DNA of 43,130 nucleotides, taken from the IMG/VR virus record IMGVR_UViG_3300045988_040655, positions 1 to 43,130 of that record. One strand, given 5' to 3'. This DNA comes from a virus. The translations under genes were made by a program, and so were the position numbers. The notes under the pieces are model-generated. The model saw nothing but the letters and a program-made list of their open reading frames with translations, was not told the DNA's origin and searched no databases. Positions 12,360 through 21,291 of the stretch are shown piece by piece (the stretch's first letter is position 1; each line of letters begins with the position of its first letter).

Positions 12360-12962
12360 ATGAGAACAAGGGACGAATTGCGGGATGGCTGCGCAAATTT
12401 ATTGCGTAAATTGCGACTAGAGACAAGTTACAGTAAATCGAAAATGGCGGAGACCGTCGGAATTGACCTCCGCACATGGGAAAAGTATGAGAGCGGACAA
12501 GCGTCCCCGCGTGTAGATGAGTTTATCGCATGGTTCGACCTGTTCCACGCAGACGCGCTCCGCTATGTGTTGGATTACCTTTACCCGGACATTTACGACG
12601 GGCTAATAAATGACAGCCGGATGGGCGACCTGCGGAAAGCTGCAATGCACTACATATCTAATGTAGCATCTGACCATGCAATCAAGAAATTTGACTTTCT
12701 GGTATTCGGCGAACATGGATCAAACATCGAAGCCCAGACAGAGGAATTTACGATGCTCGACCACCTGCCACTCACGATGCGGCTTGCGGTTGCGTCCCTG
12801 ATTGACATCCTATACCAGACGGCGGAGGCAAACAACCTGCTGGTCTGCACCGACTGCGTTATGCCCATAGTTGATGTATTTCACGACGGCCTGAAAAAGG
12901 GACGTGAAGCCGTAATGGACGGGAAGCAAAGCTATACCACGTCCTCGGTGAGGAAAATATGA
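12360..12962 (+). CDS. HTH (XRE-like) regulator with ~130-aa C-terminal domain of unknown function
   Basis: 200 aa from ATG 12360 (SD AAAGGAG). MAETVGIDLRTWEKYESGQASP. ATGA coupling to the integrase. No S24 motif seen. Confidence 0.7.
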   Translation: MRTRDELRDGCANLLRKLRLETSYSKSKMAETVGIDLRTWEKYESGQASPRVDEFIAWFDLFHADALRYVLDYLYPDIYDGLINDSRMGDLRKAAMHYISNVASDHAIKKFDFLVFGEHGSNIEAQTEEFTMLDHLPLTMRLAVASLIDILYQTAEANNLLVCTDCVMPIVDVFHDGLKKGREAVMDGKQSYTTSSVRKI

Positions 12963-14077
12963 GCACCTGTATCAAATGCAAAGCCGCCTTGCCGGAATGG
13001 GCTGTTTACTGCCCTATGTGCGGCAAAAAGCAGGTGGCCGAAAAGCGTAAGACGCTCAAACGTGCAAACGGAACCGGCTCCGTCTACAAGCTCTCAGGGC
13101 GGCGCACAAGGCCGTGGGTGGCCGCAAAGGGCAAGGTCATCATCGGATACTATGAGCGCAAGACGGACGCTCTGGAAGCTCTGGATAAGCTGGCAGGGCA
13201 TACGGTGGCAGAACGGTACAATTTTACGTTCGCTCAGGTGTATGATGCTTGGAGCAAGGAGCATTTTCGCTCCGTGGGTGATGCGGCAAAAGTCAGCTAT
13301 GGCGCGGTCTATAAAAAGTTTGAGCCTTTGTATGACCGGAAGTTTCGGGATTTGCGTACTGCCGATTTTCAGGCAGTCATAGATGCGCATGCAAATCAAT
13401 CCGCCGCCACGCTCGGCAACTGCAAGTTGCTGGCATCTCAGATGAGCAAGTGGGCTATTCGTGAAGAGATCGCAACGACAAACTTTGCCGCATTTATCCG
13501 ATTGCCGAAAAAGGAAACAAAGGAAAAGGAAATATTTACGCCAGAGGACATAGCTGCCTTGACCGCCGATGACAGTGACACCGCACGGGTAATACTTATG
13601 CTGATCTATACCGGTATGCGCGTAGGCGAACTTTTCAAGTTGTCTGTCGAGGATTATCATGGTGCTTACGCTATCGGCGGTGAGAAAACAAAAGCGGGCA
13701 AAAACAGGGTTATCCCGATCCGCCCGGAAGGGCAACAGTATTTTGAGTATTTTGCAAGCATAGCAAATGGCGAAAGGCTCCTGTCTGGGTATGCGGCAAA
13801 AAATACGCAGCAGTTCCGCGTGGCGTATTTTTACCCGCTGTTGGACAAGCTAGGGATCAAGCGCAAGACCCCACATTCCACCCGGCACACATACGCCAGC
13901 TGGGCGCTGCAAAACGGTATCGCTCCCGAAAATTTGCAAAAAATCTTGGGGCATGCAAAGTTTGCCACGACAGCGGAAATTTACTATCACAGCGACGCTG
14001 ACACTCTTGTGTCAGCTGTGCTTAATGCTAGTAACCGTGTTAGTAACCTAAAACAGACAGACGCAGATGAAAACTGA
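12959..14077 (+). CDS. int: Tyrosine integrase with N-terminal zinc ribbon and AP2-like arm-binding domain
   Basis: 372 aa. CIKC...CPMCG; GSVYKL...RPWVA; catalytic residues in TGMRVGEL, HSTRHTYAS and LGHAKFATTAEIYYH (R...HxxR...H...Y). Confidence 0.95.
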   Translation: MSTCIKCKAALPEWAVYCPMCGKKQVAEKRKTLKRANGTGSVYKLSGRRTRPWVAAKGKVIIGYYERKTDALEALDKLAGHTVAERYNFTFAQVYDAWSKEHFRSVGDAAKVSYGAVYKKFEPLYDRKFRDLRTADFQAVIDAHANQSAATLGNCKLLASQMSKWAIREEIATTNFAAFIRLPKKETKEKEIFTPEDIAALTADDSDTARVILMLIYTGMRVGELFKLSVEDYHGAYAIGGEKTKAGKNRVIPIRPEGQQYFEYFASIANGERLLSGYAAKNTQQFRVAYFYPLLDKLGIKRKTPHSTRHTYASWALQNGIAPENLQKILGHAKFATTAEIYYHSDADTLVSAVLNASNRVSNLKQTDADEN

Positions 14078-14279
14078 TAACACCCGGATAATTGCTGATA
14101 AATCAGTGCTTATCCGGGTGCATCAGTTTTGAGCAAAAATGTTAATATTAAGATAGTTTTAATATGTTGCGGCGTCGCAAAAATTATGCAACTCAAAAAA
14201 TCTAGCATTTCCAGTGGTTTCATCGATCTCACTTGCGGCAATTTTGCGGATTTGTTAGTAACGCGCTAGCAACCGTGTT
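14027..14279. other. Candidate attP region
   Basis: Non-coding AT-rich stretch between int and the convergent cassette. G[CT]TAG[TC]AAC motifs at 14027-14035, 14039-14047, 14254-14262 and 14265-14273. The 15-mer GCTAGTAACCGTGTT (14027-14041) recurs 14/15 at 14265-14279. TTGCGG occurs three times. Confidence 0.45.
14081..14120. terminator. Bidirectional intrinsic terminator between int and the cassette
   Basis: Perfect 11-bp stem CACCCGGATAA/TTATCCGGGTG (14081-14091 / 14110-14120) with an inner CTGAT/ATCAG (5 bp) stem. CAGTTTT follows on both strands. Confidence 0.7.
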
Positions 14280-14608
14280 TAAATAGCGCTGATTTTCCGC
14301 ATCACGCTGTCATATGTGCGCTGGTTTACGACCTTGAGCGTGTCCATCAGCTCGTCCATAATATCCCACGCTTTTTGCTGGTCTTTGTTCGACACCATGC
14401 GCAAAAAATCGCTGTCGCCAGTAATGCCAGCAGAGACAGCCGCCGGGGCGGCAGAATAAGATCGTTCGTAGGCTAGTGGTTTTTTTGCGTCGCCTTCCAT
14501 CCTGTCGCGGATGATGTACAGGTCTGCCAGCTTTGCATAATTAGGGTAGCTGGATTCAACGTATTCGAGCCGGGCAATTTCGGCGTTGATCTCTTTGGCA
14601 TCCAGCAT
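14279..14608 (-). CDS. Cassette gene H: hypothetical protein (109 aa)
   Basis: SD AAGGGGGAG. Helical protein (EINAEIARLEYVESSYPNYAKLADLY...DELMDTLKVVNQRTYDSVMRKI). No function recognised. Confidence 0.6.
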   Translation of the reverse strand: MLDAKEINAEIARLEYVESSYPNYAKLADLYIIRDRMEGDAKKPLAYERSYSAAPAAVSAGITGDSDFLRMVSNKDQQKAWDIMDELMDTLKVVNQRTYDSVMRKISAI

Positions 14609-14623
14609 ATTTACTCCCCCTTA

Positions 14624-15016
14624 TTATGCACGATCGAGCTGATCTTTGCAACGCCGAATTGCGTCTTTCATTTCGGCGGTGTCCGCCTGCTCCATCATCT
14701 CGTCCAGCTGGTCGATCATATGGGACTTTGCATCGTCCCGGCTGTATCTGCCCCTGCTGTAATGACCGCGAACGTAGTGCGTACCGCGTCTGGCGTAGCT
14801 GTTGCCGCGCCGGTACATATCGCGGTCATCGTCCCAATCACCGCTGTAACCGTCCAGCTCTTCAAACATCTCAATCTTATAGATATTTTTGATGGAGCTG
14901 GTAATATCGCGGATAGCGTCCAGCGTTTCAGCGGACGCGCCACGGCTCCGCATATCCTTTTTGATGTCCTCCAGCTCGTCGCAGAGCATTTTCATCAGGT
15001 CGTCATAGTTCGCCAT
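14624..15016 (-). CDS. Cassette gene G: hypothetical protein with central Arg/Tyr/Gly-rich segment (130 aa)
   Basis: SD AAAGGAGGAAAAACATG. Acidic helices flank YRRGNSYARRGTHYVRGHYSRGRYSRDD. Confidence 0.6.
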   Translation of the reverse strand: MANYDDLMKMLCDELEDIKKDMRSRGASAETLDAIRDITSSIKNIYKIEMFEELDGYSGDWDDDRDMYRRGNSYARRGTHYVRGHYSRGRYSRDDAKSHMIDQLDEMMEQADTAEMKDAIRRCKDQLDRA

Positions 15017-15029
15017 GTTTTTCCTCCTT

Positions 15030-15452
15030 TCAGCTTACGCGCTCGACAATCAGATTGCTGTTGGCAAAGCTGACGGCCTGAGTGCTGGTGTTTTCGGCGG
15101 CAACGGTTACACAGCAACCACGCGGGACTTCCACGAAAGCCGCCACATAGATGTTCCAGTAATTTTCCACAGCGGCAGGAGTCACGGTAGCGGTTGCGCT
15201 GGACAGCGGTTCTCCGTTGATCGACAGCGCGGCAGTGATAGCTTCAGCTGTACCCCCGGTGGGAACGGCGATATTCGCGCCGAAGGAGACCTTGAATCGT
15301 GCTTTGCACTGGTTGGTCAGTCCACGCAGCGTAACGATGCCGGCACCCTCACGATGCACGATGCAGGGCTTGCCCGCAACGGCGGTTTCGGTCAGGGGCA
15401 CATTCTGCCCGGCAGCAACAGACGTAATCTTGGAGTTTGTGTATTCAGCCAT
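15030..15452 (-). CDS. Cassette gene F: C1q/TNF-like (BclA C-terminal-domain-like) beta-sandwich protein (putative)
   Basis: 140 aa from ATG 15452 (SD AAAGGA 8 nt upstream). All-beta pattern with INGEPL in the middle and a ...NSNLIVERVS end, as in the BclA CTD (...IQVNGVPV...SASIIIEKVA). No collagen repeats. Confidence 0.5.
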   Translation of the reverse strand: MAEYTNSKITSVAAGQNVPLTETAVAGKPCIVHREGAGIVTLRGLTNQCKARFKVSFGANIAVPTGGTAEAITAALSINGEPLSSATATVTPAAVENYWNIYVAAFVEVPRGCCVTVAAENTSTQAVSFANSNLIVERVS

Positions 15453-15467
15453 TTTCTCAGTCCTTTC

Positions 15468-15497
15468 AAAAAAACGGCGGGGCATATCACCCCGCCG
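15468..15497 (-). terminator. Intrinsic terminator inside the cassette (between genes E and F)
   Basis: 8-bp GC stem CGGCGGGG/CCCCGCCG (15475-15482 / 15490-15497), 7-nt loop. On the minus strand T7 (15474-15468) follows and runs into the SD of gene F. Confidence 0.75.
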
Positions 15498-15563
15498 CAA
15501 AATCTCAGTATCAACACGGGGTTGACCATCCGAGTGATCCTCGGAAGCTGATGTGTTTAGTTG

Positions 15564-16316
15564 TCAGCAGGAGGCGCAGCACCCCAGAGCCGCGTTACTA
15601 GCCCACGGGTTGCAGGACTGGTACGCAGGGATGGGGGTAGGTCTCAGTGTGGTGACCAGATAGTTGTTCTGCGCCGCCTGAGACGCAGCCAGCTGGGCGG
15701 CGAAGAGCTGCTGATTCTGCTCGGCAATCTTCGCGTCCTTCTGGGCAATCTCCTGAGCGGTCAGGCGCTGTTCGATACCCCGGAAACCGGCGTTCATGCT
15801 GTCAATGATGTCGCGGGTGGTATTCTGCACGGTGTTGCGGGTATCACAAGCCTGAGTGGCCATGTCATACCGCACCTGAGCGATTGCCGCCCGGTTCTCG
15901 CAGCAGCACTCCTGCGCCTGCATCTGCATCTGGGACAGCTGCTGCATCAATGCAGCCTGCTGGTTTGCGCGGGACAGTTCAGCGGACATAAAGCCATTGC
16001 TCATGCTCTGCTGGACGCCGTTGACCAACTGCGCCTGCTGGTAAAAACCGTCGCACAGGCCGTTGTTCACTACGTCGATTTTGCGCTCAATATTGGCAAA
16101 GTCAGAGGTGAGAATGTAGCCATCGACAGCGCCAGAACCATTGCCGCCGAAGCCACTATTGCCCCAGTTCCCGCCCCAACCGCAGAATACGAACAAGAAC
16201 AGGATAATGATCCACCATGCACCGTCTCCGCCCCAGCCGAAGCCATTACCATTGCCAGTGTTGGCAGGCTGAACCGGCATTGTCATCACAGTGCCGCTAT
16301 CGGAATTAAGACTCAT
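15564..16316 (-). CDS. Cassette gene E: Gly/Trp-rich single-TM protein with Q-rich helical region and Cys clusters
   Basis: 250 aa, SD GAGAGGAG 7 nt upstream. GNGNGFGWGGDGAWWIIILFLFVFCGWGGNWGNSGFGGNG; LCDGFY; MQAQECCCENR; C-terminal SCNPW...GCCASC. 10 Cys by my count. Confidence 0.65.
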   Translation of the reverse strand: MSLNSDSGTVMTMPVQPANTGNGNGFGWGGDGAWWIIILFLFVFCGWGGNWGNSGFGGNGSGAVDGYILTSDFANIERKIDVVNNGLCDGFYQQAQLVNGVQQSMSNGFMSAELSRANQQAALMQQLSQMQMQAQECCCENRAAIAQVRYDMATQACDTRNTVQNTTRDIIDSMNAGFRGIEQRLTAQEIAQKDAKIAEQNQQLFAAQLAASQAAQNNYLVTTLRPTPIPAYQSCNPWASNAALGCCASC

Positions 16317-16364
16317 TGAAAGACTCCTCTCATTTAATTTTATTTGTAATTTGCGGCCACAAAT

Positions 16365-16547
16365 TTACATCAAATTCTGAAACATTTTCGCCATTTGCTG
16401 AAGCTGGTTCAGCTGTTGCTGGCTCATCTTGCCGGACTGGAGCAGCTTTTCCACCTCGGCCTTTGGGTCGCCCTGAAACGACTGCTTGAACTGCTGAAAC
16501 TGGTTCATCATCTGCTGAAACTGCATCATCGGGTTTCCGTTAAACAT
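16365..16547 (-). CDS. Cassette gene D: 60-aa Gln/Met-rich protein
   Basis: GGAGG SD 9 nt upstream. The start overlaps the stop of gene C by 8 nt. 16 Q and 9 M of 60 residues by my count. Confidence 0.55.
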   Translation of the reverse strand: MFNGNPMMQFQQMMNQFQQFKQSFQGDPKAEVEKLLQSGKMSQQQLNQLQQMAKMFQNLM

Positions 16548-16968
16548 CTGGCTCTGCCTCCTTTGCCCTTCTTGCGGGCTTTTGCTCCAATTTGTTCACT
16601 TTTTGGACAAGCCCGTCAAACTCGTCCCGGGTAATGTATTCCGGTGTAACCTGTGGAGCTGTCGGTTCGTCATCGTCCGTGTAAGACATGGTTTTCATCG
16701 GGTAAGGAGATCCGTTCATGTCGCGGCTCTTCCAGAAAAATTTATGCCCAGCTCTCCACCAAAGGAGGACGGATGCACCGGCAGCGACAAGATAGCCTGT
16801 TGCCTCGTTCTCACTGCCGACCTCGACCACATTGATTTGCTGCGTAGGTTGTGCCATATTCTGCTGCTGTGCAGGCTGCGCCATCGCGGTGTTAGGCTGA
16901 TTCATCATCGGCTGGAACTGCATCTGCGGATAATAGGGGTTTCCGTACATATAGGGGTTATAGGCCAT
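16540..16968 (-). CDS. Cassette gene C: protein with uncharged Q/N/P/M/Y-rich N-terminus and a globular C-terminal part
   Basis: 142 aa from ATG 16968 (TGATG coupling to gene B). The first 44 residues contain no D/E/K/R. They are followed by INVVEVGSENEATGYLVAAGASVLLWWRAGHKFFWKSRD. Confidence 0.6.
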   Translation of the reverse strand: MAYNPYMYGNPYYPQMQFQPMMNQPNTAMAQPAQQQNMAQPTQQINVVEVGSENEATGYLVAAGASVLLWWRAGHKFFWKSRDMNGSPYPMKTMSYTDDDEPTAPQVTPEYITRDEFDGLVQKVNKLEQKPARRAKEAEPDV

Positions 16969-17348
16969 CACTGCTCATTCCTTTCCCAGTAATACAATGG
17001 GACTTCGCCGCTGGAATCCCAGCTGTCCCATAAATCGCCCTCTGACACGCAGACAACGTGGCCAGACAGCGCGAGGATATATGTCCCGCATGGGTGCTCT
17101 GCGGCAAAATCAGCCACGGTGTAGCAGTCCGGGCAGGTGTCCGGGATTATGTGCCGCGCCCAGCCCTGCTGCCGGAGATACGCGCCCCAGACGGCGTTCG
17201 CACTGGGTAAGTCGCCCATCAAGTAGCCTTGCAGGGCAAGGGCGGTATATATCTCTTCCCAACTGCGTTCAAGCCCTTTTGTTAGAGCCCTTACAGTGCA
17301 ATCGCCCACGTTCTTCCCGGTTGGGTTTGGATTATAAGGCCGGAACAC
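16968..17348 (-). CDS. Cassette gene B: putative papain/NlpC-P60-like Cys-His hydrolase
   Basis: 126 aa from GTG 17348 (SD GAGGG 8 nt upstream). YNPNPTGKNVGDCTVRAL (candidate Cys) ... LSGHVVCVSEGDLWDSWDS (candidate His/Asp). The longer track ORF overlaps gene A. Confidence 0.5.
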   Translation of the reverse strand: MFRPYNPNPTGKNVGDCTVRALTKGLERSWEEIYTALALQGYLMGDLPSANAVWGAYLRQQGWARHIIPDTCPDCYTVADFAAEHPCGTYILALSGHVVCVSEGDLWDSWDSSGEVPLYYWERNEQ

Positions 17349-17481
17349 GGTTCCTGCCCTCAATCTCTGTGATGTATTTCTCAAGGGCGTTATCATCGCC
17401 CTGCAACTTATACCATTCGATGATCTCTGCCGCTTCCCATACAGGGACACCGGCGCGAATCAGCCGTTCAAACGCTTTCAT
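17332..17481 (-). CDS. Cassette gene A: small protein (49 aa)
   Basis: ATG 17481 with SD AAGGAG 8 nt upstream. MKAFERLIRAGVPVWEAAEIIEWYKLQGDD.... The longer track ORF would run through a terminator hairpin. Confidence 0.45.
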   Translation of the reverse strand: MKAFERLIRAGVPVWEAAEIIEWYKLQGDDNALEKYITEIEGRNRVPAL

Positions 17482-17555
17482 AGGACTACTCCTTTCCCTC
17501 TCATTATCCGGCATTTCAGGGGAGCGTTTCGGCGGAAAAGCGGATGAAAAACGGC

Positions 17556-17585
17556 AAAAAAATAACCCCCTCGATTTCGAGGGGG
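17556..17585 (-). terminator. Intrinsic terminator T2 upstream of the cassette
   Basis: 8-bp stem CCCCCTCG/CGAGGGGG (17566-17573 / 17578-17585), 4-nt loop. On the minus strand TTATTTTTTT follows. Confidence 0.75.
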
Positions 17586-17653
17586 AAAAAAATAAACCCG
17601 CCAAATCCGTTTTTATCGGATTCAGCGGTTAAAGTGTAATTTGCCAATATTGG

Positions 17654-17698
17654 AAAAAAATAAAAAAATAAAGGGCGGCAAGCCGAAGCTCACCGCCC
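17654..17698 (-). terminator. Intrinsic terminator T1 at the end of the late operon
   Basis: Minus-strand RNA GGGCGGUGAGC-UUCG-GCUUGCCGCCC (11-bp stem including 2 G-U pairs, UUCG tetraloop; 17673-17698), followed by UUUAUUUUUUUAUUUUUUU. Confidence 0.85.
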
Positions 17699-17710: not shown

Positions 17711-18013
17711 CTAAATTAAATTGGTTAAGATAGGCATTGCGTCATCGATTTTCGCCCGGATGGTGCGTTCTGAATAGCCGACCCAATCGGCAATCGTGGC
17801 ATAATCCTGATGTTTGCAAAAGCGCCTGTGCAAGATGTCCTTTGTGACGTCATCTAGGTTCGCGGACTCAATCAGCTCTGCGAGGTCATAAGACCGTGCA
17901 ATCCGTTTCAGGCGGCGCTTTACGTCCGCCGGATTCGGGTCAAGTTCGTTCAGCGCGTCCAGCAGGATGCGGATGATTTTAAGCCGGGTTTCGGCCAGAA
18001 TAGCGTCGGTCAT
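17711..18013 (-). CDS. Sigma-70 region-4-like / DUF1492-like small transcription regulator
   Basis: 100 aa. DILHRRFCKHQDYATIADWVGYSERTIRAKIDDAM is a region-4-type HTH. ATGA-type overlap with the endolysin. Confidence 0.55.
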   Translation of the reverse strand: MTDAILAETRLKIIRILLDALNELDPNPADVKRRLKRIARSYDLAELIESANLDDVTKDILHRRFCKHQDYATIADWVGYSERTIRAKIDDAMPILTNLI

Positions 18014-18909
18014 GCGTTAAGCCAGCGCTGAAGCGCTTTTGCGGACTCTGCGCCAAACACGCCGTCAACGGAACAAGGGAACCCCTCGCCGCACAGGAAG
18101 GACTGCAACGCCTTTGCGGTACCTTTGCCCAGCAGACCATCAGCAGACGTGCCAACGGCGGACTGCATTGCGGCCACAAACTGAGACTTGCCGCCAGTCC
18201 AGCCGCAAGCGGAATTGCAAATTGCAGGCCAGTACTTTTTGCAAGATGCGGACTGGCCGGAAATATAGCCGTCAGCCGCAGTGCCAAGAAGCTGCTGAAA
18301 CGCCTTGATGGTGCCTTTCCCGATTTGTCCGTCTACGGTCAGTTTGCCGGGCGTAGGAGCAGCGGAAGGCGTAGGCGTCGCACCTGCTTTGGAGCCGTTG
18401 GACAACACCATGACGGTGTGACTACCCGGCTTAACGAGGATGTCGCCCCGCTTGAGATAGGCGTCGCCGGTCAGGTATTTGCTGTCCGTCAGCACCTCAA
18501 ATGCGCCGGTCGCGCGGAACTTGTCCACCATCGTGCTGGTGGTGGGTGCATTGCCGCTGTACTCCAGTGCGGAGACACCGCCAGCGAGGGCACAAACCGT
18601 CATAAATGCAGAACAGTCCGTCTCGCATTTGGTGTTGATAATGGCCAGATTGTAGCCGCACCGCTTTGCGTAGTAATGCAGGGTGTTGCGCTGGCTCTGA
18701 TCGTAGCCGATTTTATTGTTTGCACAGCCCTGTTCGCAGGCTTTTGCCATGCGCTCCGCCACACTGGCAGACTTGGGTCGCAGGCAGTATCGCCAGCCCT
18801 TGTTGTACCAGCTGCGGGTGCATACTTCGCGCCCGGTCTGGTCACCGGTTCTGCCGCCGGAAGCCTTGCCGCGCTCGTCAATGGATGCGTGTCCGATGGT
18901 TACGCTCAT
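18010..18909 (-). CDS. Endolysin: N-terminal Cys-His (NlpC/P60- or CHAP-like) hydrolase plus C-terminal peptidoglycan-binding repeats
   Basis: 299 aa. GHASIDERGK...ETDCSAFM...GDILVKPGSHTVMV. An Ala/Pro/Thr linker is followed by three DG.(I/L)GKGT.KA(F/L)Q..L-type repeats. Confidence 0.8.
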   Translation of the reverse strand: MSVTIGHASIDERGKASGGRTGDQTGREVCTRSWYNKGWRYCLRPKSASVAERMAKACEQGCANNKIGYDQSQRNTLHYYAKRCGYNLAIINTKCETDCSAFMTVCALAGGVSALEYSGNAPTTSTMVDKFRATGAFEVLTDSKYLTGDAYLKRGDILVKPGSHTVMVLSNGSKAGATPTPSAAPTPGKLTVDGQIGKGTIKAFQQLLGTAADGYISGQSASCKKYWPAICNSACGWTGGKSQFVAAMQSAVGTSADGLLGKGTAKALQSFLCGEGFPCSVDGVFGAESAKALQRWLNA

Positions 18910-18921
18910 ATGATTACCTCC

Positions 18922-19137
18922 TCACTTGATTTTGGGCAGCTTGTCCACCTGGATTTTCACATTGCCGACGATACCGGCGAAATACCCGTCCGGGAACTTG
19001 ATGGTCGGCACCGTCACGCTGATTTTCGGCAGCGTCGGCAGCTTGGGCGGCTTGAGGGTGGGCGTGACGGCGGATGCACTGCCGATCAGACAGGCCGCAA
19101 GGGCGGCGGTGACGATAAGGTATTTGAGCTTTTTCAT
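18922..19137 (-). CDS. Small secreted protein / putative lipoprotein (71 aa)
   Basis: Signal peptide MKKLKYLIVTAALAAC with lipobox L-A-A-C. The mature part is Pro/Lys/Thr-rich (PTLKPPKLPTLPK). Confidence 0.6.
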   Translation of the reverse strand: MKKLKYLIVTAALAACLIGSASAVTPTLKPPKLPTLPKISVTVPTIKFPDGYFAGIVGNVKIQVDKLPKIK

Positions 19138-19361
19138 GCGGTTTCCTCCTCTTCTTCTGCTGGCGCGGATGCGGCGTCCAGCGCGTCGTAATATGCCTGT
19201 GCCAACGTCTCGATCTCGGCGATGTCGGTGTCGTCCAGCAGGCCATTGTCCAAATGGGTATACGCCTTATCCAGCCAATAGGCCACGTCGCGCCCGCCAG
19301 AAATCTCCCGCTTGATGGAGCGCAGGGCCAGGTCGTGTCGGGCTTTGGATTTAATTGCCAT
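19134..19361 (-). CDS. Hypothetical acidic protein (75 aa)
   Basis: ORF with ATGA overlap to the downstream gene and an EEEEE tail. Could be a fibre accessory protein; this rests on position only. Confidence 0.5.
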   Translation of the reverse strand: MAIKSKARHDLALRSIKREISGGRDVAYWLDKAYTHLDNGLLDDTDIAEIETLAQAYYDALDAASAPAEEEEETA

Positions 19362-19371
19362 AAGTGCCTCC

Positions 19372-21291
19372 TTATGTGGTAGTCATGGACGCAATGGCGT
19401 CCTCAAGATTCTTGACGACGAGATTTAAGTCCCGCTGGTAGTCCAGCTTGATGCCAGCGCCATCGCTGGCCTGCACCACAGTGTCAGGGCCGTAAGCGGT
19501 GAGGGCTTTGTATGCGGCAATCTCGGCAGGGGTGAGCGGAGTTTCGATGGGGGTTGAGAGCGTCGCATTTTGTTCGGCAAGCGGTTTTGTGTCGTCGAGA
19601 GCCGCCTTATCAATCCTCTGCACCATAACCTCTCGCGCAAAATCAACCTCATCGCACACCCACTGCTGGCCGCTCTGGTCAGTGTAGTTGCCGCCAGAGT
19701 TGACAGGGATGCCGGGTAAGCCGTTGGGAGTGGGGAGCGTGAGGATCTGTTCGCGGTAGGGTTCATAGTCTGGAGATGAAGCGTCCCATGTTAGGCAAAT
19801 GTTTTTGCTGGCTATGTCTAGCACATAATATCGGAACTTTATTGCGGTCGCCTTTAACGATCTATGTACTTCAGTTACACCCTCGTCAATAGCAAACCAC
19901 ATTTCTTCGTTGTTTTCGCCGATAAACAACAGGTTTCCGCCTCGAGAAACAATACCGCCCTTGAACACTAAATATATCGTTGTGTTTTTCTCGACGAAAC
20001 ATTCGACGTCAACACCTAGTTCAAGGTTAGGTGGCATCCGATTCTTCCCCGTCACCTTCACCTCCACGCTTCCCCCGTCACCGGCGCTCACGATAGGCAC
20101 AGGTGCATCTGGTGACGGCGTCCCGTCCTGCGTACTCTTGCCGTACACGGTCAGGCCGCACAGCGGGGCGGAATATGCGTCATTACAGCTGACCTGGTTG
20201 CCAGTATCACTGCCGACAAGGATATTCTGTCTGGCTCGCAGTTCGTCCACGGATGACTTTAGCGCAGGCAGCTGTTTTTCGCGCTCCGCTTCTGCTTTCA
20301 CTCGGGAGGATTCGGCTTCTACACGTCCCTCCTCTGCCGTCTGCCGCTCCTGCTCGGCGTTTGCACGCTCGGATTCAGCGTCTTTTCTGGCCGTCTCGGA
20401 GGTCACACGGGTACTCTCTGCCTTGACACGGGACTGCTCTGCGTCAGCGCGTTTGGATTCTGCGTCAGCTCTGGCTGTTTCGGCCTCTTGCCGCTTGGAC
20501 TCGGCAGTCTGGCGAGCGGTCTCATCGGTAACGCGCTGGGTTTCGTGATCCCTTCGTAACCTTTCGTAATCTGCGCGTTCCTCTTCCGACTTTACGCGAG
20601 CGGCTTCTGCGGTTGCCCGGTCGGTTTCGGCACTTTCGCGGGCTGTTTCCACTCTCGCACGGGACGTCTCCGCGCTCTGACGGTCATCCTCGGCGGCAAT
20701 ACGGACGCTTTCGGCGGCTTGCCTCTCCTTTTCAGCGGCGGCGCGGTCGGCCTCTGCATCAACTCTGGCGGTCTCCGCCTCAACGCGGGCAGACTCCGCC
20801 GCCGCCCGGTCGGCTTCGGCGGTTTCTCGCCCAGACTCCGCCTCCAGCACCTTGTCCATGTCCGCACGGACTCCATCGGCGGTCTTGACCGCACCATTCG
20901 CGGCAGACAAGATCTGCTGTACCAGATCAGGCGTTGGCGCGTCGCTGGTTGTGCCGTCTGTGCCAGCCTGCGCAATCACCGTGTAAGAGATATTACAGGA
21001 TGCAATCTGCACACCGTCCGCCATACCTGCGATCACAAGCGCACCACGGCCAGCAGACGCAGTTGCCTCCGGGGGCACGTCCGACAGTCCGTCTGACGGC
21101 ACAAGCACACGCACCGGCTCCGCCGCTTTGGGCGGATGATACACCGCTACAATGTCAAGCCCGTCCCACCCGGCACCGGCGACAACGGCAATCTGCTCCA
21201 TGCCATAGCTCTCGACTGTGCCAAGCTGGATCTGGGCGGGCATAGGCGCGTACCGATCCAGGTGTATCTTGTGGACGATCTTGTCCGGCAT
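19372..21291 (-). CDS. Tail fibre / host-recognition protein with long heptad coiled coil
   Basis: 639 aa. N-terminal domain, then 27 uninterrupted xExxRxx heptads (aa 151-339), then a ~300-aa C-terminal domain (YGKSTQDGTPSPDAPVPI...). Confidence 0.65.
   Translation of the reverse strand: MPDKIVHKIHLDRYAPMPAQIQLGTVESYGMEQIAVVAGAGWDGLDIVAVYHPPKAAEPVRVLVPSDGLSDVPPEATASAGRGALVIAGMADGVQIASCNISYTVIAQAGTDGTTSDAPTPDLVQQILSAANGAVKTADGVRADMDKVLEAESGRETAEADRAAAESARVEAETARVDAEADRAAAEKERQAAESVRIAAEDDRQSAETSRARVETARESAETDRATAEAARVKSEEERADYERLRRDHETQRVTDETARQTAESKRQEAETARADAESKRADAEQSRVKAESTRVTSETARKDAESERANAEQERQTAEEGRVEAESSRVKAEAEREKQLPALKSSVDELRARQNILVGSDTGNQVSCNDAYSAPLCGLTVYGKSTQDGTPSPDAPVPIVSAGDGGSVEVKVTGKNRMPPNLELGVDVECFVEKNTTIYLVFKGGIVSRGGNLLFIGENNEEMWFAIDEGVTEVHRSLKATAIKFRYYVLDIASKNICLTWDASSPDYEPYREQILTLPTPNGLPGIPVNSGGNYTDQSGQQWVCDEVDFAREVMVQRIDKAALDDTKPLAEQNATLSTPIETPLTPAEIAAYKALTAYGPDTVVQASDGAGIKLDYQRDLNLVVKNLEDAIASMTTT

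Follow-up and report, generated by a model that had tools for sequence, protein, structure and literature searches.

GerE is a 74-amino-acid (aa), helix-turn-helix (HTH)-only regulator of the LuxR family that controls late spore-coat genes, and it acts at sites close to the -35 region in promoters of genes for low-complexity proteins that are prone to assembly. Late cargo operons whose products are freed by lysis include the Shiga toxin genes, which are under Q antitermination, and the colicin operons, in which a terminator inside the operon precedes the lysis gene. Small HTH proteins of the RinA, ArpU and DUF1492 families are known as activators of the late operon in phages of Gram-positive bacteria (PMC3753634). 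Here, we analyse a locus in the IMG/VR virus record IMGVR_UViG_3300045988_040655, whose 43,130 nucleotides (nt) are hereafter called the window: a cassette of eight minus-strand open reading frames (ORFs), g1 to g8, that follows the endolysin gene and a small HTH gene and converges on an integrase gene. Our tentative reading, which we consider possible rather than probable, is that the cassette constitutes an activator-driven, very-late lytic operon whose products build a host-directed protein assembly, being neither a virion part nor a conversion factor expressed in the lysogen. Late-lytic expression is favoured because the gene of the presumed activator overlaps the endolysin stop codon or, in other phages, follows holin genes. 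The cassette does not appear to be bound to the virion, since Dulem virus 35 keeps it while its portal and major capsid proteins lack BLAST similarity to those of the window, nor tied to lysogeny, since it is located in the head-gene cluster of Dulem virus 35 and has early-gene neighbours at L096, L100 and L103 and an ArdC-like neighbour at L101. The elements of the locus, in the direction of reading, are as follows.

17711..18013, minus strand: HTH protein of the sigma-70-region-4/LuxR-GerE type, 100 aa (Sigma70_r4, E-value 0.004)
17556..17698, minus strand: three tandem terminator-like hairpins with U-runs (17698-17673, with a UUCG loop; 17628-17598; 17585-17566)
17482..17555, minus strand: putative promoter and leader, with a -10 element GATAAT (17508-17503), CCGC-type short repeats (17544-17522) and the ribosome-binding site GGAAAGGAG
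17332..17481, minus strand: g1, 49-aa helical protein (ORF from 17481 to 17335), an optional member
16968..17348, minus strand: g2, predicted minimal papain-like Cys-His-Asp protein, 126 aa from GTG at 17348
16540..16971, minus strand: g3, ORF from 16971 to 16543 (phrog_21718, 6e-14)
16365..16547, minus strand: g4, 60-aa Q/M-rich helical peptide, from 16547 to 16368 (phrog_22984, 4.5e-15)
15564..16316, minus strand: g5, 250 aa, from 16316 to 15567 (phrog_16490, 3e-46)
15463..15566, minus strand: three-hairpin RNA element (hairpin 1, 15545-15529; hairpin 2, 15525-15511; hairpin 3, 15498-15474, plus a U-run)
15030..15452, minus strand: g6, 140 aa, from 15452 to 15033 (phrog_20016, 4e-58)
14624..15016, minus strand: g7, from 15016 to 14627, based on an alignment of its family
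14279..14608, minus strand: g8, from 14608 to 14282, based on an alignment of its family

Conservation and positions of the cassette

All eight coupled ORFs (17481 to 14279) were confirmed in the sequence, with the common strand, tight coupling and features that the initial annotation had described. Neighbouring genes either overlap or are separated by 13-15 nt, except at the g4/g5 (48 nt) and g5/g6 (111 nt) junctions. A search of IMG/VR with g6 gave more than 590 relatives, of which 80 loci were kept and, together with two GenBank phages, make up the 82 loci referred to below; these loci are related to each other, and counts across them do not represent independent events. g6 occurs in all 82 loci, g5 and g8 in 75 each, g3 in 73, g2 in 72, g4 in 70 and g7 in 68, and the order g2-g8 is constant wherever the extent of the contig permits (about 100 phage or prophage loci overall). 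The same order was found at 13 loci from genome assemblies, nearly all of Oscillospiraceae, Oscillibacter or other Clostridia and one of them binned as Collinsella, as well as in prophages of two Acutalibacter muris assemblies. Furthermore, a g6 relative 40% identical to that of the window (P0293) led to eight more distant loci from other metagenomes, where the order is unchanged and the proteins are ~26-61% identical to the closest cassette proteins of the query set (29-39% for g5, 41-48% for g6); another distant relative of g6 (P0379), used as a single query, found no relatives. Because conservation of g2-g8 at the protein level, with their order kept, extends over 68-82 of the 82 loci and over the 13 and 8 others, the ORFs are, on sequence evidence, genes and not chance reading frames. 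That the order is kept across loci, down to the distant ones, also disposes of the objection that these could be unlinked singletons, and answers, for g2-g8, the check proposed initially of whether the families co-occur in a fixed order in Clostridia prophages.

By BLAST, g1 has relatives at only 3 loci, and collinear g1-like ORFs with the motif RLxAxG..E.A.D...Y occupy the same slot in several other cassette types. That is, judged from these comparisons the conserved core is g2-g8, with g1 as an optional and divergent member. When clustered at 90% identity, the families are large, with at least 7,932 clusters for g5, at least 8,000 for g6 and 6,774 for g2.

The genomes around the cassette vary. 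The lysin family of the window is present at 3 of the 82 loci and an integrase match of any kind at 11. One window tail protein has three relatives in IMG/VR, as against more than 590 contigs with the cassette, and with so few relatives a presence/absence test anchored on this tail gene was uninformative. At loci whose g6 proteins share 81-86% identity, those tail fibres that could be detected share 34-78%. The arrangement of the window recurs in Dulem virus 33, with a gene annotated as endonuclease inserted on the opposite strand between g4 and g5 (7741-8292 of L001), which indicates that the operon tolerates an insertion at this junction. In Dulem virus 35 the block consists of g2, an XhlA-like protein, a small transmembrane protein, a 47-aa HTH protein and g3-g7, and is located between the gene for minor capsid protein 2 and the scaffold and major capsid genes, 15 kb from the endolysin and integrase genes, with the HTH-terminator-promoter design kept. 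The cassette proteins of this phage are 28-59% identical to those of the window (33-51% over longer alignments) and its tail proteins 26-41%; it is its portal and major capsid proteins that show no BLAST similarity. Early genes (ERF, G39P-like, DnaC/IstB-like, PDDEXK) come next after the cassette, on its own strand, at L096, L100 and L103, as does an ArdC-like gene at L101; no integrase gene was found within 4-7 kb of the cassette at these four loci, and at L099 a serine recombinase takes the place of the integrase. In a metagenome-assembled genome of A. muris, the cassette is at the prophage boundary. Many of the IMG/VR contigs terminate ~1-1.5 kb past g6.

The constant companions of the cassette are the HTH gene and, usually, lysis-type membrane genes, whereas attP and virion modules are not constant. 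Comparison of the loci indicates that HTH gene and cassette move as one unit. The initial annotation had taken the position for a classical moron or lysogenic-conversion site. Terminators on both sides, a -10 element and the adjacent attP are indeed present, but the sporadic distribution implied by such a site is not: the cassette is syntenic down to ~30-45% protein identity and occurs at other genome positions and next to early genes.

The HTH gene, the promoter region and the intergenic RNA

The ATG of the HTH gene overlaps the TGA of the endolysin gene in the window (ATGA, 18013-18010), and the protein matches Sigma70_r4 below threshold (17.0 bits, cut-off 24.1). At 79 of the 82 loci, a small HTH gene encoding a 47-100-aa protein precedes g2 on the same strand, at a distance of at most 3 kb; the proteins can be divided into at least eight sequence types, and elsewhere than in the window the gene sits after holin or BhlA/XhlA-like genes. 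It is also kept in the A. muris prophages, Dulem virus 35, Bajarodcaudo virus 5 and L100. Seven of ten HTH types tested match Sigma70_r4 or Sigma70_r4_2 (best 2.4e-9) and five match GerE (best 3e-10), the protein of Bajarodcaudo virus 5 passing the cut-off with 26.7 bits. Only region 4 aligns in these proteins; no region 2, and hence no complete alternative sigma factor, was found among them. The gene, first noted as merely preceding the cassette, is indeed sigma-region-4-like, and its pairing with the cassette at 79 of 82 loci argues that it belongs with it functionally; we presume from this arrangement that it encodes the cassette activator. Likewise, of the alternative sigma factor that had been suggested, the region-4 neighbour and the lack of a plain sigma-A promoter hold, whereas the complete factor does not. 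Directly upstream of the HTH gene, the distant cassette phages of L100 (5303-5611) and L104 (4385-4666) encode a small membrane protein with a WLY.(W/F)(N/Q).YDY motif past the transmembrane segment and a Gly/Asn/Asp/Tyr-rich tail, which may be an additional accessory member.

The three hairpins between the HTH gene and the promoter fold together with a z-score of -4.8 relative to shuffled sequences. Both of the strong terminators reported initially are real, although their number was not two, the hairpin at 17628-17598 being the third. Another hairpin (15498-15474), followed by seven U, is located between g5 and g6 and is likewise stable relative to shuffles. In all, a GC-rich hairpin with a U-run, as expected of an intrinsic terminator, is found at four minus-strand sites of the window. 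Across the loci, terminator-like hairpins are present upstream of g2 in 72 of 79 cases (one to three, often two or three in tandem), between g5 and g6 in 65 of 86 and after g8 in 58 of 76.

The -10 element GATAAT of the window is placed 22 nt before the start codon of g1. No sigma-70-type promoter with both hexamers was found upstream of g1, since the -35 hexamer is absent; the earlier statement that a near-consensus sigma-A promoter is missing there can thus be made more precise. In the relatives, a -10 element (TACAAT, TATAAT or CATACT) directly follows the terminators, again with no -35 hexamer. Upstream of it, direct repeats are spaced exactly 11 nt apart: chains of exact 5-mers occur in 50 of 61 distinct regions as against 20% of shuffles, and chains of three or four copies in 8 of 61 regions as against 0 of 1220 shuffles. 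Judged by eye, the repeated word goes with the HTH type (GGCAC, GGCG/GTCGC, TGATGCACA), while TGACC and GGCAG chains belong to loci with no typed HTH gene or with a further type. Because the pairing of HTH gene and repeats is conserved and the repeats appear to change with the HTH type, we read the two as a putative private activator-operator pair. Promoters for sporulation sigma factors were considered and set aside, the -10 elements being nearer to a TATAAT-like sequence than to the sigma-E, -K, -F or -G consensus in a comparison made by eye.

The unit would therefore comprise the small HTH gene, the terminator block, an activator-dependent promoter and g2-g8, with or without g1. From the gene arrangement, the HTH protein would be the last product of the late (lysis) transcript, and the tandem terminators, whose hairpins are seen in the sequence, would block read-through of this transcript into the cassette. 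The HTH protein would then bind the periodic repeats in the -35 region and recruit sigma-A RNA polymerase to the -10-only promoter, the outcome being a very-late burst of seven or eight proteins that lack signal peptides.

At L009, L010, L014, L033 and similar loci, a gene on the opposite strand is located between the HTH gene and the cassette promoter. The insert has its own AT-rich divergent promoter region, and the spacing between HTH gene and g2 is ~1 kb in this group.

The hairpin between g5 and g6, which had been described as a third terminator splitting the set into five and three genes, is real; it is not a stand-alone terminator but the third hairpin of an RNA element. Over 48 distinct sequences, 94% of the cells of the proposed pairs hold standard pairs, as against 36-62% in slid controls. 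Of the 21 pairs, 9 vary in both partners, and the covariation score is 0.32 as against 0.04-0.18 in the controls. Hairpin 1 occurs with 17 distinct arm pairs of 5-8 bp, hairpin 2 keeps the loop CCCGU or CCCAU, and hairpin 3 has a GC-rich stem. A covariance model matches the window at a single place (80.5 bits) and finds the element of Dulem virus 35, which was outside the training set, with an E-value of 2e-5; Rfam has no match within 15463-15566 at E-values up to 5. The element was not found in the distant cassettes, where g5 and g6 are spaced 10-20 nt apart, and hairpin 3 has no U-run at L011, L021 and L104. Because of these absences we regard it as a predicted lineage-specific regulatory add-on, either an attenuator or an mRNA-end structure, and not as a defining part of the cassette. 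In the sublineage of the window it would set the ratio of g2-g5 to g6-g8, by attenuation or by shaping the mRNA end. An antiterminator pairing between hairpins 2 and 3 was also considered and is not judgeable, both segments being nearly invariant. At L018, L084, L092 and L093, an extra ORF of ~70 aa (e.g. MGTVNELKTDFVNHLATLELPKMSLVELGAYADLLRK...) is located between the RNA element and g6.

Cassette proteins and genomic surroundings

Scans of all eight proteins against Pfam, NCBIfam and PADLOC gave no significant match, the exception being a weak, sub-cut-off match of g6 to BclA_C. Five of the eight proteins belong to PHROGs, all without a function. Pfam scans of the g3 and g5 families member by member gave no consistent match, and sequence profile searches of the PDB with g2, g3, g5, g6, g7 and g8 found nothing with an E-value below 0.02, the few matches being noise. 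Noise was also all that PADLOC-DB returned (PD-T4-6 for g5, E-value 0.03; PDC-M10B for the HTH protein, E-value 0.0025). Together with synteny, these Pfam, PHROGs, NCBIfam and PADLOC comparisons are in keeping with the first impression that the proteins resemble no virion, lysis, replication or defence family, and the profile searches, which had been proposed as a check, assigned a well-known function to none of the eight. Reading of the sequences by eye indicated no signal peptide in any of them.

For g2, the mechanically delimited ORF starts at 17450 and has 160 aa, but its homologues and phrog_3754, which it matches at 1e-26, begin at about residue 35, pointing to the GTG at 17348 as start. 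C17, H97 and D108 are invariant in alignments of 17 and of 58 sequences. In an AlphaFold2 (AF2) model with a mean confidence (pLDDT) of 94.5, C17 starts a helix (17-26), H97 starts a strand (97-102) and D108 is on a strand (105-108), so that the order of the triad and the topology of the model correspond to the papain arrangement. A fold search of the PDB gave weak papain-like matches only, namely Josephin-2 (the best, E-value 0.16), USP and Tae4, none of them below 0.1. In BFVD, 21 phage proteins from many host phyla match with E-values below 1e-3; almost all are uncharacterised and one is named C39 peptidase. A homologue is labelled 'putative papain-like endopeptidase' by one database source, while no peptidase model in Pfam or NCBIfam matched g2. 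These data support a minimal papain-like Cys-His-Asp protein and predicted enzyme, as the earlier description of a Cys-His hydrolase-like protein had anticipated. A C39_2/CHAP-type lysin was considered and rejected, since hhalign gave a probability of 11% for a phage C39_2 lysin and no CHAP or NlpC fold appeared in the PDB search.

g6 is the most conserved member of the cassette. Its AF2 model (pLDDT 77) is an all-beta sandwich of 11 strands, for which the top Foldseek matches are, in order, the C-terminal domain (CTD) of the tip-fibrillum protein F-BclA (9h38; E-value 1.3e-4, TM-score 0.67), the BclA CTD (1wck and 2z5w; 2.7e-4 and 0.66 for 1wck), BxpB (8d02; 1e-3) and ExsF (9h3d), with identities of 12-17%. 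These are followed by ligands of the TNF family, C1q and TNF-like lectins, the central spike of phi812 ranking 49th. The Pfam model BclA_C (PF18573) is matched over positions 7-128 of its 128 positions with an E-value of 0.003 and 17.9 bits, below the cut-off of 38, and nine diverse g6 homologues have no match to it at E-values up to 0.1. Four Cys are invariant in g6, among them a CC pair. The family comprises 600 clusters at 50% identity; among the best 150 representatives, nearly all have ~140 aa or fewer (about 72-196 aa), and neither these nor g6 itself (140 aa) contain collagen-like GXY repeats or a stalk. The model thus supports a stand-alone TNF/C1q-type fold resembling the BclA CTD and BxpB, as had been surmised from the sequence. 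We call it a BclA-like fold and not a BclA family member, owing to the sub-cut-off BclA_C score, the identity of 12-17% and the lack of a collagen stalk. An apparent 16-fold relative of 3,261 aa (P0250) was rejected as an FN3-repeat protein, i.e. a beta-sandwich or compositional artefact. A role of g6 in capsid decoration was rejected as well, because a phage that bears the cassette has a capsid and portal unrelated to those of the window.

g5 has a conserved N-terminus and a hydrophobic segment of 15 residues flanked by Gly, Trp and Asn, followed by a Q-rich helical region with an invariant CCC and then a Cys/Gly tail. It had been called YjcZ-like, but neither NCBIfam (E-values up to 1) nor Pfam bears this out, and the resemblance is compositional only. 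The first 49 residues of g3 (previously counted as 44) are uncharged and rich in Q/N/P/M/Y; they are followed by a small beta domain (~55 aa) and then, at the C-terminus, by a helix. g4 homologues are 61-100% identical in 79 loci. Helical ends enclose a disordered Y/S/R/G-rich centre in g7 and a variable linker in g8. g3, g4, g7 and g8 are made up of short folded or helical pieces and of low-complexity sequence that is rich in P/Q/Y/M, Q or Y/S/R/G.

In Bajarodcaudo virus 5 (L105, 6734-7153), the position of g6 is held by an unrelated, beta-rich protein of 139 aa that has no relative in Pfam or the PDB. Its N-terminal GCGGC cluster echoes the Cys/Gly tail of the g5 of the same phage, from which it appears that Cys clusters of neighbouring members may interact. 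A 332-aa Asn/Ser/Gly-rich protein stands in place of g7 and g8 in this phage.

The window as a whole is a temperate, siphovirus-like genome with tail proteins and a fibre on the minus strand (phrog_372, phrog_6616). The following features flank the cassette.

18010..18909, minus strand: endolysin of the ELLD type (Pfam ELLD, PF25309, 4e-66), with PG_binding_1 and PG_binding_3
14078..14278, strand not assigned: attP region between the convergent integrase gene and g8, with direct repeats flanking the gap
12959-14077, plus strand: integrase (phrog_1, 4e-48), converging on the cassette

The endolysin gene is the last enzymatic gene of the late operon, the order on the minus strand being tail and fibre genes, endolysin gene, HTH gene and cassette. 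The sequence TGYTAGTAACC occurs four times, as two pairs 215 nt apart (14026-14048 and 14253-14274) that flank the 200 nt separating g8 from the integrase gene; of these pairs, one is contained in the 3′-terminal part of the integrase gene and one adjoins the g8 stop codon. The copies look like arm-type integrase sites, and with the endolysin and HTH genes upstream they place the cassette at the lysis-attP locus to which it had been assigned. A 19-nt inverted repeat at 14081-14120, just past the integrase stop codon, coincides with a chance-level Rfam match to 'mir-35'.

No holin is recognisable beside the window endolysin, where the ORFs 18922-19137 and 19134-19361 (both on the minus strand) have no PHROG match; at related loci, ordinary holin and BhlA/XhlA-like genes occupy this position. 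Of the two products, that of 71 aa has a hydrophobic segment with a lipobox-like LAAC at its N-terminus and a tail rich in Pro and Lys, and that of 75 aa is acidic. Oscillospiraceae and other Clostridia are regarded as monoderm, and a spanin pair (g5 as i-spanin, the 71-aa lipobox protein as o-spanin) was dropped on this ground. The N-terminus of the tyrosine integrase (12959-13030, plus strand) has a zinc-ribbon-like CxxC...CxxC motif (CIKCKAALPEWAVYCPMCGKK). The fibre protein (19372-21291, minus strand) contains ~200 residues of Ala/Glu/Arg-rich repeats (AE.DR.AAE.AR.EAE...), and its C-terminal motif TPNGLPGIPV..GGNYTD..GQQW.CDE is 71% identical to a 497-aa protein that Dulem virus 35 encodes between its portal and minor-capsid genes.

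Candidate functions and comparison with known systems

In the very-late lytic operon that we tentatively propose, the parts of the assembly would be the papain-like g2, the Q/P/Y-rich g3 and Q-rich g4, the Cys-rich helical g5 with its Gly/Trp-flanked hydrophobic anchor, the highly constrained g6 with its BclA/BxpB-type trimer fold, and the helical, partly disordered g7 and g8. Most likely, these products would assemble in the infected cell as a membrane-associated, host-directed complex, which would act at or after lysis, either with the envelope as its target or in the form of material that the burst sets free. Several points weigh against this. The protein types fit a spore coat or exosporium at least as well as a lytic function: they include a BclA/BxpB-like fold and low complexity rich in Cys, Q/P/Y and S/R/Y, without signal peptides, and we know of no lytic-cycle role that would need such a set. 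The cassette of the window is at a prophage end, the classical moron site, and the loci that appear to lack an integrase are partial contigs. On the regulatory side, the repeats of the window are weak and spaced 8-9 nt instead of 11, the HTH protein of the window is below the Pfam cut-off, the link between HTH protein and promoter is positional, with the change of the repeated word assessed by eye at loci that are related to each other, and the HTH gene may have an internal or lysogen-active promoter of its own.

The points on protein type and position lead to a lysogenic conversion of the spore surface, which we consider unlikely. The cassette would be expressed in the mother cell of a sporulating lysogen, where signal peptides are not required, and its proteins would become part of the coat or exosporium layers or take their place, with g6 as a trimer resembling BxpB or the BclA CTD, g5 as a Cys-rich lattice or anchor, g3, g4 and g7 as a low-complexity matrix, g2 as a processing or cross-linking enzyme, and the GerE-type HTH protein acting as GerE does on late coat genes. 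It is in keeping with this that exosporium proteins head the structural matches of g6 and outrank TNF ligands and lectins, that g6 stands alone as BxpB/ExsF do, that half of the HTH types match the GerE family, that the hosts are Oscillospiraceae and other Clostridia, and that the window cassette, with terminators on both sides, reads outward from the prophage end by attP. The fold match of g6 is modest, though (E-value ~1e-4, TM-score 0.66, 13-17% identity), and TNF-like folds are common outside spores; BclA_C scores 17.9 as against 38 bits, collagen repeats are lacking, and no other member matches a coat or exosporium family. Moreover, the -10 elements look like those of sigma-A and not like CATA---TA or CATACA-T, the lysis genes to which the HTH gene is coupled are not expressed in lysogens, and the cassette also occurs in a head-gene cluster and beside early genes with no integrase nearby. 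The spore- or envelope-remodelling module of the initial annotation thus keeps a place among the possible readings but, in view of the lysis-coupled HTH gene and the sigma-A-like -10, is not the best-supported one.

A further candidate is an accessory lysis set, in which the cassette would supply extra envelope-disrupting factors that work together with the holin and endolysin; g2 would be another peptidase of the cell wall, and g5 an effector at the membrane. This overlaps with the operon that we favour, as one activity that its assembly may have, and the cassette does constantly adjoin holin, BhlA/XhlA-like and endolysin genes; even in Dulem virus 35, far from the endolysin gene, an XhlA-like gene is beside it, and g2 has a papain-like triad. 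We nevertheless regard it as quite unlikely, because g2 has neither similarity to CHAP, NlpC/P60 or C39_2 lysins nor a wall-binding domain, g5 matches no holin family, monoderm hosts need no spanin equivalent, and g3, g4, g6, g7 and g8 are left without an explanation.

A membrane-based superinfection exclusion or anti-phage system of the prophage, with g5 as membrane part and g6 as a trimer binding receptors or phages, appears more doubtful still. The position at the prophage end, the separate transcription unit, the membrane-anchored protein and the TNF-like binding fold are typical of accessory loci, but such loci are usually patchy and turn over fast, whereas the cassette is syntenic across deep divergence with g6 as its most conserved member. 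In addition, PADLOC gave no match, known exclusion systems do not resemble a set of seven genes in fixed order that encodes low-complexity proteins, and the coupling of the regulator to lysis genes speaks against expression in lysogens. Finally, ordinary proteins of the virion or of its assembly (e.g. head fibres, decoration proteins or tail accessories) encoded past the lysis genes are the least probable explanation, for although late expression would be expected of them, TNF-like knobs occur in phage fibres (e.g. the phi812 spike) and the Dulem virus 35 cassette is flanked by minor-capsid and scaffold genes, the cassette does not co-vary with structural modules (it is retained in that phage alongside an unrelated capsid and portal and diverged tails, and across loci g6 is better conserved than the tail fibres), has its own regulator and terminators and no structural PHROGs annotation, and includes a membrane-anchored Cys-rich protein that is unexpected in a tailed virion.

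As a more specific version of the very-late lytic operon, and at best a long shot, the unit could be a portable 'very-late' programme of gut-Clostridia phages, fired by the sigma-region-4-type activator made with the lysis genes, that covers or fills the dying cell with an exosporium-like proteinaceous layer or matrix rich in Cys and Gln. Such a layer might consist of a BxpB/BclA-type trimer on a membrane-anchored Cys-rich scaffold, with Q-rich substrates and a papain- or transglutaminase-like enzyme, a composition that is just as speculative; its role, no less conjectural, might be to protect, aggregate or target the released progeny, or spores of the host in which the phage is carried. Among bacterial viruses, such a programme would correspond to the very-late occlusion programme of baculoviruses.

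Whatever the function, few unannotated phage proteins in gut metagenomes are as abundant as those of the cassette families, and the cassette is found as a fixed operon with a private regulator in phages whose capsids, tails, lysins and integrases are unrelated. This abundance, and the travel as a fixed unit across unrelated phages, suggest strong and general selection in phages of the Oscillospiraceae, a major and poorly cultured group of gut bacteria. What was a list of 'hypothetical proteins' becomes a defined system with a candidate activator-operator pair, a covarying RNA, a predicted enzyme with a named catalytic triad and an exosporium-type fold. If its product were a spore-surface or post-lysis structure, phages would have a new route to shape persistence and transmission in the gut.

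No known system matching the cassette was found in the Pfam, NCBIfam, PADLOC and Rfam searches, and a literature search turned up neither an account of the cassette, of its pairing with the regulator or of its RNA element nor anything linking Oscillospiraceae prophages with the exosporium or BclA. The member families are already catalogued in PHROGs without a function; the regulatory logic has precedents, the payload does not. The closest precedents are RinA, ArpU and DUF1492. These small HTH proteins are relatives of sigma region 4 and activate an operon bounded by terminators, which is the logic proposed here for the cassette HTH protein; weak matches to ArpU (E-value 0.054) and DUF1492 (0.013) were obtained. 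Those activators are encoded upstream of terS and drive the packaging-to-lysis operon, whereas the cassette HTH gene ends that operon and would drive the next one. GerE of Bacillus subtilis is likewise HTH-only and of similar size, and five of the ten HTH types match its Pfam family, but it works on sigma-K promoters in the mother cell whereas the -10 elements of the cassette are sigma-A-like; since LuxR-type HTH domains are ubiquitous, the family match is uninformative on sporulation. With the Shiga toxin and colicin operons the cassette would share late products that lack signal peptides and are freed by lysis, a dedicated phage regulator and an internal terminator that tunes the proximal/distal ratio. 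It differs in that there is no similarity in sequence or structure to any toxin or bacteriocin, that it is located past the lysis genes and that its regulator would be an HTH activator and not an antiterminator.

Among the proteins themselves, g2 has the triad layout of papain-like peptidases (C39-like peptidases, Josephin and USP deubiquitinases, Tae4-type amidases), but at 126 aa it is near the minimal core, and its closest folds are uncharacterised phage proteins. For g6, the BclA CTD, F-BclA, BxpB and ExsF of Bacillus exosporia have a TNF/C1q-type jelly roll of the same size as that predicted here, and BxpB/ExsF, like g6, stand alone without a collagen stalk. Unlike these proteins, g6 is encoded by phages within a fixed seven-gene operon, has four invariant Cys and carries no N-terminal exosporium-targeting motif.

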